A DNA stretch of 64,000 bases, taken from positions 66,714,001-66,778,000 of the forward strand of contig CM059432.1 of assembly GCA_030390025.1 (NCBI GenBank). Reading direction: 5' to 3'. Shown piece after piece: positions 42,821 through 48,299 of this stretch (the stretch's first letter is position 1; each line of letters opens with the position of its first letter). Origin of the DNA: Squalus acanthias. Its lineage: Eukaryota. Below the pieces are notes generated by a model. It worked only from the letters and a program-made list of their open reading frames with translations, was not told where the DNA came from and did no database searches. A program made the position numbers and the translations under genes.

Positions 42821-44190
42821 TTGTCATAACTTAATAGATTTGAAATTGTTGTCAAAACTAAGAGATGTAACTTAGGCATATTTGTTGAGAACCATATTAA
42901 GAGTTCTACTGCTACTACTTTTGTATGATGAGATAAGCTAATTTGGCTATCCATTCAATGGCCTCCTTAGATGGCCTCCTTAGAAATGAACTTCCGAGAT
43001 TTGGTGCAGGGCCATATAGATGTTGATAAAGGCAAGCACCGACCCCTGTGGCAGACCATAGTTGAGCGTTCGTGTTTGGCTGGTCTTGTCACCAAAATAG
43101 ATGCAAAACTTACGGTTGCTCGTTAGGATGTTGATAAGCCTGAGAGTCTTACAGCATTGGATGATTATTGAAAGCTTATATTAAGAGTAAATCTACAGGG
43201 AAAAAATGTATCAACTAGGATGAGGAAAAAAATTAGGGGGCCTTATTTTCTGAGGCTAAATGTAACTAATTGGCCCTTCCAGAAATTAGTTCTGATGCTT
43301 CCAAAAAGTTACAACATTTTTCAACACTTGATAACAGGTAAATAAAAAATGCTGAATCACTGTTGAGTTTAACTATTGTTATTTTCACTGTGAAACTGTT
43401 TAGGTTAAATTTCTGAAAAATTTTGTATCCATGCTGCCACTGTCTCTTTAATCCCATGGGCTTTAATTTTGCTAACAAGTCTATTATGTGGTACTTTGTC
43501 AAACGTCTTTTGAAAGCCCATATACACAACATCAACTGCACTACCTTCATCAACCCTCTCCATTACTTTATCAAAGAACTTGATCAAGTTAGTCAAACAC
43601 AATTTATCTTTAACAAAACCATGCTGACATTTAGCCCATACCTTTCCAAATGCCAATTAAATTTCTCCCGGATTATTGGGGTAAAAATTCAGTTGGTTGC
43701 GCCTCCCGTTAGCGCCTTAAGAGGGCACTAATGGGGCGCAAAGCCGCTAGCGCCCAGGCGCAGCGATGTTTGCGCCGCTTGGGAACTTAACTAGACATTG
43801 TGCGGCGGCGCTAAACTTTACCGCTGCGACCACCTGCGCGCGCAGATTGTGACGTCATTCCATGGTGCAACGCCCTTGTGGCGCCCCGGAGCGGAAATTG
43901 AGTGGCGCCCCCTGCCTTACCGCCTGGCGCATCCAACGACCGGAAGACTGGAACGCTATCAATCGCTGTGGGGCTGGGGGGGGAGCGCTATTTAAAGGGG
44001 GCCTCTTCCTGTCTTTTTCTGTGGTTGACATTTTTGCACCACTCGTTCTGAGAGAGAGAGAGAGATTCGGAGAGAGAGAAAGAGAGACTTCTGCATTGAG
44101 TCAACGCTGTGTGAGGTAGTTTTGCCTACTGATCCTAACTTCGCTGGTACTTTGGTTGCTGTCCTTCATAACTTTGCTTGCAAAGAGACT

Positions 44191-45351
44191 ATGGGGGCTG
44201 CACTGAATGGGGGCGTCGTCCTGCTCCAGTTGAATCGGAGGACACAGAGATGCAGAGAGAGAGTGGCAATGATGGCCAGACAGAGGAGGGCCAACAGGCA
44301 TATGTACAGGAGAGCTTACCCTCCCAGGGTATATCGTGAACAGCTCTCCTACATTCATATGTCTGAGGAGCTGTGTTTGCGAAGGCTGCGATTCAGCAAG
44401 GAGGTGGTCACTGAGCTCTGCCACCTGCTGCAGCCAGATCTGCAGCCTCAACTGAGGTCCAGGACGTCTCTGTCGGTGGCAGTGAAGGTCACAGTGGCTC
44501 TCAACTTCTATGCTACTGGTTCATTTCAAGCTGCTGCTGGGGACCTCGCCAATATCTCCCAGTTTGCGGTGCATTGCTGCATCCAGCAGGTCACAAATGC
44601 CCTCTTTAAAAGGAGACGAGAGTTCATCTCTTTCCCCATGACCCCAGACAAGCAGCATGACCGCGCTCTGGGCTTTGCGAGGATAGCGGGCTTCCCCATG
44701 GTGCAGGGCGCCATTGACTGCACGCATGTGGCTTTGCGTGCTCCACATGAGAATGCCGAGGAATTCCGGAACAGAAAGGGGTTCCATTCCTTGAATGTTC
44801 AGTTGGTCTGTGACCACAGACAGCTGATACTCGCTGTCAATGCCCACTATCCTGGCAGCTGCCACGATGCTTTCATCCTGCACCAGACTACTGTGGCAGA
44901 ACTTTTTGAGGCACCGCATCAGCCAGTTGGTTGGCTTCTCGGGGACAAGGGGTATCCATTGAGCACCTGGCTGATAACACCGCTCCGTACGCCCAACACC
45001 CCTGCTGAGCTGCGGTACAACGATAGCCATCAAGCTACCAGGAACATCATTGAGCGCACAATCGGCGTGCTGAAGCAACGGTTCCGCTGTCTCGACCATT
45101 CTGGAGGAGCCCTGCAGTACTCGCCTGAGCGAGTATCCAACTTCGTAGTTGTGTGCTGCATGTTGCATAACATGGCAATCGTCAGGACCAAGCCAATGCC
45201 ACCAGGCCTTGGAGCACCACCAGAGGAGGAGGAGGAAGAGGAGGAAGAGGACGAGGAGGATGATCATCAGCAGCACCAAGGCGGGAGGGCGGCCCACAAT
45301 GGTGAAACTGCAAGGGCTGTCCGTCAACGGCTGATAGCAAGCCGCTTCTAG
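44191..45351 (+). CDS. Harbinger DDE transposase (HARBI1-like), 386 aa, uninterrupted
   Basis: ATG at 44191 to TAG ending 45351; HTH-like region; catalytic motifs GAIDCTH, LGDKGY and IERTIG; acidic tail. Confidence 0.93.
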   Translation: MGAALNGGVVLLQLNRRTQRCRERVAMMARQRRANRHMYRRAYPPRVYREQLSYIHMSEELCLRRLRFSKEVVTELCHLLQPDLQPQLRSRTSLSVAVKVTVALNFYATGSFQAAAGDLANISQFAVHCCIQQVTNALFKRRREFISFPMTPDKQHDRALGFARIAGFPMVQGAIDCTHVALRAPHENAEEFRNRKGFHSLNVQLVCDHRQLILAVNAHYPGSCHDAFILHQTTVAELFEAPHQPVGWLLGDKGYPLSTWLITPLRTPNTPAELRYNDSHQATRNIIERTIGVLKQRFRCLDHSGGALQYSPERVSNFVVVCCMLHNMAIVRTKPMPPGLGAPPEEEEEEEEEDEEDDHQQHQGGRAAHNGETARAVRQRLIASRF

Positions 45352-45663
45352 GGCCCCTGCTGTGGAAATGGCTTCTGCCATTGCTAACAACATCAATGAA
45401 CCCAGCACGCAACCCCTAAGCCGGCCAAGGCACCAATGATTCCAAACACCAAACATGTATATTTTGAATACAAAAACTTATTTATTTTACAAACTCTGTG
45501 TGTGTCATTTCCTCATGACAAACTCATAGAAATAAACACAAAAAAACAGTCATTAACATAACTGGTTCTCACAACCTGGAGATAATGTCCAAAACACTAG
45601 ACAAAAGTTGGACCACGAACCTCGGCCTTTAATAAAAAAATGACCAGCATTTTGTCACACCTC

Positions 45664-47483
45664 CTACTTTTTGCCCTTCGAGGGTGATCTCCTTCCCTTG
45701 CGCACTTCCCCCCTTCTAACCCTACTGCTCCTCCGTAATGGGACCTCAGTGGCTGCAGCAAGGCTGGTGGAAGGCTGCTGCTCGTCAGACCCTGACACTG
45801 CAAATGCCCCTGAAGGACGGCCTCGACCAGTTCTGGGCCTGGAGGGCCCGGCTGCAGACTGCACCAACTCTGCATGGGCGGCAGCAGTCTGTCCTACAGG
45901 CGGTGGCAAGTGCAGTGGAGAAGTGACAGTGTTGGCAGCAGGAATGCTGTCATCGTGAGATAGGACAGCAACTCCCTGCTCGCCCGACACACTGGCACTC
46001 CCACGGGGCAGCACTTCAGCATCCGGAACAATCTGCTGGAGCACAGATTGCTGGCCTGCTGCGGCGCGGTGAGAGCCCCGGGGACATGTGAACGAACCAT
46101 CGAGGTTGGCAGCAGTCAGTGCTCGCGTGGCCTCAATCTGAGTCTGCATGAGAGCAGTCAGAGATGGGATCACGGTAGTCAGTGACTGAATTGCAGCACT
46201 AAGCGTTAGTGTGGCATCCGCCTGTGCTACAGCGAAGTGCTCCACACTCCTTGCCAGTGACTCAATGCATTCGGGCACCCTTCCCACTGCACCCATGAGC
46301 TCAGTGTGCATGCCCACCGCCTGGGTGTTCATTTCTGCGATCAGCCGCTCCTCCTCTGCGTCCATTGCAGTAGGAGTCGCTGGCATACTCTCCCTCTGGG
46401 GAGAAGGCCCCCGTTCTTCCCTACCCCCATGGCGTTGCTGCAGCCCGCTGGGTCCTGGAGCTTCACCCTCATCAGACCCTTCCCCCCTGCTCCCCTCCAG
46501 GGAAGGCGTGTTCCCAGTGTGGGCATGGGCTTCCTCGGGAGAGGGTGGCACTGATGCTCCGGCTTCCTCTTCCTCCTCGGCTGCAGCTTCACTCCCACTG
46601 GCAGCTTCAGGGCCCATCTCCTCAGCTGGTGAATCACCATCTGAAAGCAGGGAGGTACAAGAGTGGCTTTAGCGTGAGGACAGGGTGGCAGTAAGGGAGG
46701 AATAAGTGCAGCGAGTTAGCAAGTTGGATTGAAAGTGTCAAAGGCTGGTGTTGTGAGGGACAAGTGGAAGGACGGAGGACAAAAAGGTGATGACCTTACC
46801 ATTGCTGTCCAGAACGGGGTCGGCGTCTCCAGTGGCGACGGGACCGATCACCCGGCTTGCCACAATCCTGTAGACGCGCTCCTCAAGATCGCTGAGGGGT
46901 TGCAGCTGAGGCCGCCCTCCACCTGTCCGTTGCTGCTGTCTCCTATTATGTGCCAGCTTGGCCTGCAAGTAAAAGGACAGCATCTGAGTAAATATACAGC
47001 CATGGTCTTGCCTGATGTGCCTCCCATAGGTGAATAGCCCTTACTGTATGCAGCCATGGTCTTGCCTGATGTGCCTCCCATAGGTGAATAGCCCTTACTG
47101 TATGCAAAGTGTGGAATGTGTGTGTGTGTTTCATGAAAGGGCCATAGGTGTTGGATGAGTGTTGTGCATTGGGGTTTTAAGACCCTCTGGCCATAGAGTG
47201 AGGTTGAGATGGAGGGATGGAGAGGTATTGAGAAAAAGCCACTCACCCTGACGACCCGAGTGAGGTCGTTGAACTTTTTGCGGCATTGAACATGGGTCCT
47301 GGGCACCATGCTCCTGGAGGAGACGCTCTGAGCCACCTCCCTCCACACTCTTCTGTACTCGCGTGGCAAAGGCCTCCTGCCACTCTCAGGGAAGAGTATA
47401 CATCTTCTGCGCTCCACCGCGCCAACCAGAGCATCCAAGGCCCGCTCGGTGAAGCGCTGAGCTCGTTCTCTCACCCTCTCCAT
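45664..47483 (-). CDS. Harbinger Myb/SANT protein, 3 exons (47483-47247, 46962-46800, 46640-45664), 458 aa
   Basis: Splice sites AGG|GTGAGT..TTGCAG|GCC and ATG|GTAAGG..TTTCAG|AT; the frame joins ORF 45664-46617 with no stop. Confidence 0.87.
46997..47104. repeat. Perfect 54-bp tandem duplication in Myb intron 1
   Basis: CAGCCATGGTCTTGCC..CTTACTGTATG occurs twice; copy 1 has it once. Confidence 0.95.
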
Positions 47484-48299
47484 CCTTGGCAGCAAAATGG
47501 ATTCACAGGTCTCTCCATGCCGAGATTCAAGGCTGCAATGAGCAGGGTGTGGCTGGGGAGCAAGTTGGCCCCCCACGCTTTAAGAACTGGCCGGCGCCAG
47601 TGTGTCTGTGTTCCCTCGCTAACTGGCAGCACCTGCGCTGCGCTCGCGCGCTGAGTTAGCGCCTCACTGCTCGGCCTTTGCGCCCTAAGACAGGTGTGCA
47701 GCGCCTGATTTAGCGCTCCACTCACCTCCCGGGGCGGTAAAAGTGAAGTTTCCAGTCATTGGCGATAATTAGCGCCAGGCGCTAATTTTTGCGTCCAGAC
47801 GATATTTGCGCCCCAAACGGGGCGCGACCTAATTTTTCCCCCATTGTCTCTAAAAGTTTCCCAACCATCTATGTGAGGCTGACTGGCCTGTAGTTGTCAG
47901 GTTTATCACTCTCCTTTTTTTAAACATGGGTGTAACATTTGCAGTCCTCCAGTCCTCTGGCACCAGCCCCATATCCAAGGTGGATTGGAAGATTGTAGCC
48001 AGAGCCTCTGCAATTTCTGCCCTTACTTCCCTCAGAAACCTCGGAAACATCCCTTCCAGATCAGATGACTTTTCTACTTTGAGGACTGCCAACCTTTTAA
48101 GTACTTCCTCTTTATCTATTTTTATCCTATCCAATATCACTACTGCTTTGTCCTTTACAGTTACTTTGGCAGCATCCTCTTCTCTATTGAAGACAGATGC
48201 AAAGTTCTCATTTAATACCTCAGCCATGCCCTCTGTCTCCACACGAATATTTCCTTTTTGGTCCCTAATCGACTCCACCCTTCCTTTGACCACCCTTTT

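Follow-up and report, generated by a model that had tools for sequence, protein, structure and literature searches.

The 64,000-nucleotide stretch of Squalus acanthias DNA analyzed here (the window; contig CM059432.1 of assembly GCA_030390025.1, positions 66,714,001 to 66,778,000, forward strand) contains a full-length PIF/Harbinger DNA transposon of 4,165 bp at window positions 43678-47842, exactly the span proposed by a first-pass annotation made from the letters alone. The element encodes two genes and very probably represents one of several thousand full-length copies of its family, inserted with a 3-bp duplication into the reading frame of a long interspersed nuclear element (LINE). In this reading, the window copy is likely an older-wave copy that decays neutrally, and the family likely remained mobile until much later.

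The element, its genes and their transcripts

The element is bounded by 12-bp terminal inverted repeats (TIRs; left, 43678..43689, plus strand; right, 47831..47842, minus strand), in which 11 of the 12 terminal bases pair, and by a target site duplication (TSD) of ATT (43675..43677 and 47843..47845). Beyond these bases the two ends are similar only with gaps; over the 80 bp compared, their local score was 44 and the shuffled maximum was 43, and the TIRs are absent from the output of an ungapped repeat finder because they are short and gapped. The interrupted sequence is a decayed open reading frame 2 (ORF2) of a LINE on the minus strand, with its downstream part at 43400..43677 (RVT_1, E = 4.5e-4, below the cut-off) and its upstream part at 47846..48311. 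We take this LINE to be of CR1 type, and the octamer tail discussed below to be that of CR1, as established knowledge. The ORF2 frame runs on across the junction once the element and one ATT are deleted, so that the TSD must be 3 bp long. The first-pass reading of a two-gene Harbinger flanked by TIRs and an ATT duplication is borne out. Both subterminal regions (43690..44007 and 47513..47830) contain GCGCC/GGCGC words, with 12 in the first 330 bp and 9 in the last 330 bp (21 in 660 bp) compared with 4 in the 3,505-bp interior, and these word-rich regions may harbor binding sites of the Myb protein.

The transposase gene is a single exon on the plus strand (44191..45351) encoding a 386-amino-acid (aa) DDE transposase with an acidic C-terminal tract, which matches PF13359 in a Pfam search (E = 2.7e-39). 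As the first-pass annotation had proposed, the frame is uninterrupted and the catalytic motifs are in place, with D176 (44716), D226 (44866), D252 (44944), and E288 (45052) all present. D176, D226, and E288 are kept in 81%, 69%, and 65% of aligned relatives and presumably form the catalytic triad; a search of solved structures with the transposase gave no significant match (best E = 0.032). Between the two convergent genes, the 3' region (45352..45663) contains hexamers that resemble poly(A) signals and are candidates for this role, two on the plus strand (45531, 45631) and one on the minus strand (45481).

The second gene, on the minus strand, consists of three exons (exon 1, 47247..47483; exon 2, 46800..46962; exon 3, 45664..46640) separated by GT-AG introns of 284 and 159 nucleotides (46963..47246 and 46641..46799) and encodes 458 aa. 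Exon 1 contains a Myb/SANT domain (PF13873, E = 3.3e-10), and no Pfam match was found for exons 2 and 3; a protein search with exon 1 returned one protein at E of at most 1e-8 among 228 candidates. All four splice dinucleotides are conserved, each in 102 of 103 copies. Exons 1 and 2 together give a gap-free alignment of 109 aa with a sawshark protein, P0008 (E = 4e-29), compared with an unspliced read-through match that ends at residue 79. Intron 1, which includes two 54-bp tandem units at 46993-47100, varies among copies from 230 to 500 nucleotides, mostly in steps of 54. The P0008 alignment, the conservation of the splice sites, and these length steps indirectly support intron 1 as a predicted intron. 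P0008 is itself a gene model that combines Myb and DDE regions in one 523-aa protein and could be either a fusion or an annotation artefact. Compared with old subfamilies, both introns (46641-47246) are at least as conserved as the exons, with a divergence of about 11% for intron 1 and 17-25% for exon 2.

Among the 18 sequencing runs listed, under several coded organism labels, 17 contain part of the element and 11 contain at least half of the sampled words. One contig of X1 and two of X2, runs that are only guessed to be RNA and whose reads pool all copies, skip exactly 46641-46799 with CT..AC ends, at depths of 211 and 90, respectively; no skip of intron 2 was found in X12. The three-exon Myb/SANT gene of the first-pass annotation is thus upheld by its GT-AG introns, the PF13873 match, and this precise skip of intron 2. 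In addition, the sequence of an X2 contig departs from the element precisely at the donor of intron 2 (window 46800) and continues with something unrelated, a pattern that splicing of Myb exon 2 to a host exon would produce.

Copies, subfamilies and age

In the 3.7-Gb genome searched, the first 25 bases of the element occur exactly 18,222 times and a 25-mer of the transposase core 9,113 times, with no occurrence of either reversed control. All 36 scored element matches were full length, at 98-100% identity. Among the first 45 consecutive transposase 25-mer matches on contig C1 (all in one 22-Mb stretch of it), 29 were full length with both ends, copies clipped by the fetched stretch or carrying nested inserts being scored as not full length. 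This corresponds to an estimated 5,900 or so full-length copies genome-wide (4,400-7,100), or about 0.66% of the genome. Both frames were open in 7 of the 45, which corresponds to an estimate of about 1,400 copies (95% interval 600-2,700), and five of these seven have all four checked motifs. Relatives detected by blastn occupy 3.1% of a noisy 379.5-kb sample of 38 evenly placed 10-kb stretches, and 1.9% (two copies) at an identity of at least 90%. The family is abundant and intact, and the window copy is an ordinary and older one. Segmental duplication as the source of the copies was ruled out by differing flanks and site-specific TSDs.

[quoted passage not shown] Those observed at L031-L046 and L049 are of about 893 bp (76-86% to the element) and about 740 bp (94-98%), and they have ends and target preference in common with it.

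Comparison of copies, including 145 full-length ones, distinguished subfamily A (that of the window copy), subfamily B (about 5% from A), subfamily C (derived from B), and older groups at 82-91%. In subfamily C, a duplication of 88 bp within Myb exon 3 shortens the protein to 253 aa (27 of 31 copies); the transposase of C is open in 28 of the 31 and differs from that of B by 11 synonymous and 12 non-synonymous changes over 272 and 886 sites, respectively. The members of C observed were L035, L084, L088, and L190-L218, and the closest copy pairs fall within this subfamily. Elsewhere, L082 and L083 (C1:18.915-18.928 Mb) lie 8 kb apart with about 55 bp of right flank in common and different left flanks, and L083 is a mosaic that is nearer to subfamily B towards its right end, which suggests gene conversion.

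Between the A and B majority sequences, the transposase has a ratio of non-synonymous to synonymous divergence (dN/dS) of 0.22 and Myb codons 1-133 one of 0.19, compared with 1.33 for the rest of Myb (exon 3). The transposase and the Myb N-terminus are under purifying selection between subfamily founders. Private variants within the transposase have a corresponding ratio (pN/pS) of 0.77-0.80, with five stop codons in each of the A and B sets, and the Myb N-terminus of B has a value of 0.29 on 19 variants. Constraint between subfamilies together with near-neutral private changes indicates that the founders were functional and that copies decay after insertion. The lack of constraint on exon 3 and the truncation in subfamily C suggest either that the Myb C-terminus may be dispensable or that C may have moved in trans.

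The median divergence of copies from the column majority is 0.37-0.62%. At non-CpG sites it is 0.44% for A and 0.27% for B, in sets that consist of best matches and are thus biased young, and CpG sites change 4-5 times faster. At the epaulette shark mutation rate of 7e-10 per generation (interval 1.4-14.1e-10, as given in an excerpt of PMC10587355), these values correspond to about 6 (6.3) million generations for A and about 4 (3.9) million for B. The first-pass annotation overstated its case here: low divergence does not imply recency in sharks, with subfamily A at about 6 million generations, and open frames do not mark a special or recent copy, as they are the ordinary state (open frames in 30 of 42 best-match A copies, both frames open in 20 of 30 B copies). 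More generally, whether a shark transposon moved recently can hardly be judged from its open reading frames. Among the 42 A copies, that of the window diverges most (0.91%), and it lies 44 substitutions from its nearest independent copy among the 145; nine of its transposase residues depart from the subfamily majority, none of them at the four checked acidic positions. The proposal of recent activity is supported in relative terms for the family, which is young, expressed, represented by full-length copies at about 99%, and under purifying selection between subfamilies, and not for the copy from which it was made.

Near-identical copies, which the first-pass annotation expected of a recently active family, were found in part. 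Searches for identical independent copies were started from four copies (the window copy, L003, L057, and L165) and from L088, and no such pair occurs among the 145 full-length copies. The youngest lineages are sister subfamilies of A. The closest independent pair (L191/L204, subfamily C) differs by one substitution in 4,289 bp, and 14 of the 145 copies lie within nine substitutions of an independent copy. L191 and L204 are on different contigs, both in CR1 tails, in opposite orientation and with differing far flanks, and they represent either separate insertions or a conversion event.

Whether the family still moves can be read in different ways. It may be extinct, with its intactness reflecting a slow shark clock and its transcripts leaky read-through, a reading that we consider nearly evenly balanced. 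The near-neutral private variants with stop codons, the decay of CpG sites, and the ages of 3.9-6.3 million generations for B and A all agree with extinction, and runs of three different organism labels contain alleles of A as well as of B/C, which bursts older than the species splits would explain. However, the coded labels may stand for the same or very close species, the copies form a graded series of closer pairs down to one substitution, and intron 2 is spliced exactly at considerable contig depth. It is unlikely, but still plausible, that the family is mobile today through copies of B or C that would not have to be reconstructed. In addition to the L191/L204 pair and the 14 close copies, the open transposases of C, the doubly open copies of B, and the spliced transcripts favor present mobility. 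On the other hand, even one substitution in 4,289 bp corresponds to about 0.17 million generations at 7e-10, a pair such as L191/L204 could arise by gene conversion, and the median divergence from the column majority is 0.37-0.62%. No identical pair was found even though three of the four best-match searches began at low-divergence copies, which also speaks against mobility today, with about 36 candidates scored per search.

Target sites and CR1 tails

A perfect 3-bp TSD flanks 111 of the 145 full-length elements, and no 4- or 5-bp TSD was found among 77 copies. Target preference was analyzed at the 85 unique sites of these 111, the shared-flank pairs L005/L025, L085/L086, and L040/L042 having been removed or flagged before site counting. 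The target is palindromic from -8 to +8, A-R-A-S-W-C (W-W-W) G-W-S-T-Y-T with the duplicated core in parentheses (15-17 bp), and its strongest positions are -5/+5 (A/T, 85%) and -2/+2 (C/G, 72%). The core is WWW at 63 of the 85 sites, TWA (TNA) at 17, ANT at 8, and CWG at none, with TAT/ATA the commonest (26 of 85). ATT as a family-specific TSD was ruled out, as ATT/AAT occurs at only 7 of the 85 sites. At L007, L016, L023, L024, and other loci, both flanks resemble half-sites and the TSD is not in common, possibly through inter-copy recombination or adjacent deletions.

Many of the sites lie within an 8-bp tandem repeat, and in 12 of 19 octamer-tail loci the C-terminus of a LINE ORF2, pointing at the junction, ends 84-93 nucleotides away. 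Genome-wide, 2,476 (991 + 1,485) of the 18,222 left ends adjoin the CR1-tail octamer (13.6%). The corresponding share is 0.018% for random positions, and a matrix built from 41 non-tail sites predicts 2.0%. Tail sites score 9-13.6 bits with this matrix, like the better-scoring half of ordinary sites, and the genome still contains 25,677 double octamers in intact form. The simplest reading is that the tail insertions may reflect good target fit plus octamer abundance. At L165:1470-1500, in the L191 flank, and at L099/L102, the end of a further element is found 11 bp away from the insertion, within the next octamer unit, a pile-up within one tail.

These tails enter two further readings. In the first, which is distinctly unlikely, a native vertebrate Harbinger would still be jumping, with B or C copies (those of C with the 253-aa Myb protein) working as they lie and CR1 tails serving as self-renewing safe landing sites that let thousands of coding copies accumulate. 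If this is true, the family would offer an integration system of two components with 15-bp targeting that is ready for use, together with a natural test for the parts of Myb that are needed. In the second, which we regard as quite improbable, the transposase would be drawn to CR1 tails by a cue additional to primary sequence, for example the repeat structure or a tail-bound factor. The excess over the non-tail matrix and the repeated strikes on neighboring octamers (L165, L191) favor homing, whereas the abundance of double octamers and the good fit of tail sites may suffice as an explanation, 86% of left ends lie outside tails, and survival at harmless sites can also enrich tails.

A mechanism can be proposed by analogy with Harbinger3_DR/Harbinger3N_DR and with Ping/Pong. 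In Harbinger3N_DR and Ping/Pong, according to an excerpt of PMC2836001, the transposase is brought to the element ends by the Myb protein, which binds them, and both proteins are needed. In the shark element, the Myb protein would bind the ends, probably at the GCGCC-rich subterminal words, and recruit the DDE transposase, which would excise the element and reinsert it with a 3-nucleotide stagger. CR1-tail octamers are a frequent site, probably because they match the palindromic target, and open-frame copies likely act in trans on the 740- and 893-bp MITEs with the same ends. PIF/Harbinger elements require the two proteins to move and as a rule excise precisely, and the purifying selection on both genes is consistent with such a requirement.

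Several observations weigh against the reading of an abundant, intact two-gene family with an older copy in the window. A perfect TSD is missing from 34 of the 145 copies, and the excess of 13.6% over 2.0% in CR1 tails suggests that sequence fit may not fully explain the tails, a noisy comparison with three tandem tails in 379.5 kb. The age figures borrow the epaulette shark rate with its tenfold interval, and the genome totals are extrapolated from one C1 region with a 25-mer that also catches older relatives. Regarding expression, intron 2 is also covered by unspliced contigs, and the one raw poly(A) run, X18 (of another organism label), yielded 33 reads, all on a GA repeat, leaving the element uncovered. 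No intron-1 joint is listed in the contig alignments that show the intron-2 joint; of the splicing expected by the first-pass annotation, that of intron 2 was thus found in X1 and X2 contigs and that of intron 1 was not.

Relatives and significance

A total of 351 protein relatives were found, the best of which are elasmobranch proteins named "putative nuclease HARBI1" with a top identity of 66%. These annotated host genes from sawshark, rays, and other sharks are mostly 50-66% identical to the transposase, and none is near-identical. In a tree built from 52 of the 121 sequences, the transposase groups with those of sawshark, inside an elasmobranch clade (support 0.47-0.77). Horizontal transfer is unsupported, as the nearest proteins are elasmobranch, both among the matches and in this tree of low support. 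Apart from the HARBI1 name of these relatives, there is practically nothing to recommend a domesticated HARBI1/NAIF1-like host gene pair, which would be single copy without TIRs or TSDs and is refuted by the TIRs, the TSDs, the thousands of dispersed copies, and the near-neutral private changes. Among the relatives, P0025, P0028, and P0071 (378, 378, and 347 aa) are Harbinger-like nucleases 87-90% identical across sawfish, catshark, and bamboo shark and represent a candidate domesticated elasmobranch gene.

The element has the features of PIF/Harbinger in the broad sense, namely a DDE_Tnp_4-type transposase, a separate Myb/SANT gene, TIRs with a 3-bp TSD, and an extended target. The comparisons that follow draw on excerpts of the papers cited. 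The zebrafish Harbinger3_DR and Harbinger3N_DR likewise have a transposase together with a Myb-like gene, a 3-bp TSD, a 15-bp palindromic target, and non-autonomous derivatives (Sinzelle et al., 2008, as cited in PMC3016246, PMC2836001, and PMC8151067), and the target preference of vertebrate Harbingers extends over 15 bp (PMC2836001). Compared with the Harbinger3_DR target (PMC3016246), the shark sites agree on average at 7.4 of 12 flank bases (3.4 at random), and 74% of the 85 sites agree at seven or more, compared with 3% of random 15-mers. This likeness concerns target and gene content; the A/T-rich core of the shark TSD is never CWG. Moreover, Harbinger3_DR was rebuilt from a consensus, whereas an estimated 1,400 doubly open copies occur naturally in the shark.

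NuwaI and NuwaII (Han et al., 2015; PMC4482050) also encode DDE and Myb/SANT ORFs in about 4.2 kb, with GG/GGG termini and TIRs of at least 12 bp, and the shark element has GGG termini and both ORFs, as in NuwaI. The C and G flanks of the NuwaII pattern C(TNA)G are present at 72% of the shark sites, but its TNA core is found at only 17 of 85, as is the TWA of PIF/Harbinger in the narrow sense (PMC4482050), and the CWG of NuwaI (PMC4482050) at none. Pangu differs in its ANT duplication (8 of 85 here) and in a second ORF without a known domain, compared with the Myb domain present in the shark. The element fits the broad superfamily and none of the TSD-defined subgroups, and its flank pattern is nearest to NuwaII and Harbinger3_DR. 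Teleost Harbingers (Etchegaray et al., 2022; PMC9179366) resemble it in having two genes, expression, and a 3-bp TSD. Their Harbinger-like coverage is 0.002-0.14% (PMC9179366), and the estimated coverage by full-length copies of this shark group alone is several times these figures.

In the excerpts available, PHIS elements were called absent from sharks (Han et al., 2015; PMC4482050), and the elephant shark was reported to lack Harbingers, with other cartilaginous fish proposed for examination (Etchegaray et al., 2022; PMC9179366). The whale shark genome paper lists PIF-Harbinger, and according to that on the grey reef shark, Tourist/Harbinger elements are the most frequent DNA transposons, within a share of 1.58% of the genome; the presence of Harbingers in sharks was therefore already known. 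PIF-Harbinger insertion polymorphisms have been reported in carp (PMC13583293, in excerpt), and recent activity of a vertebrate Harbinger is therefore not unique. The literature covered, which did not extend to subscription papers and repeat libraries, contained no account of this shark family, nor of Harbingers that had inserted into the tails of CR1. The interest of the family lies in how many of its two-gene copies are intact, in the relaxed core of its TSD, in the CR1-tail hot spot, and in a near-identical young lineage. It provides intact natural copies as templates where a consensus would otherwise have to be rebuilt, insertion sites by the thousand for mapping Harbinger target choice, and, in subfamily C, a natural truncation of the Myb partner.

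The window itself contains further members. A second full-length copy of the same subfamily at 9021-13132 is 98.3% identical to the focal copy and also has an ATT TSD; its transposase frame is broken, its Myb frame is open, and its intron 1 is shorter by one 54-bp unit. Eight older Harbinger transposase-like pieces of 39-64% aa identity are located at 21048-22055, 26362-27243, 28161-29006, 35478-36334, 55562-56339, 61076-61628, 6382-6834, and 32606-32722, and that at 21048-22055 spans all 336 query residues at 62.5%.

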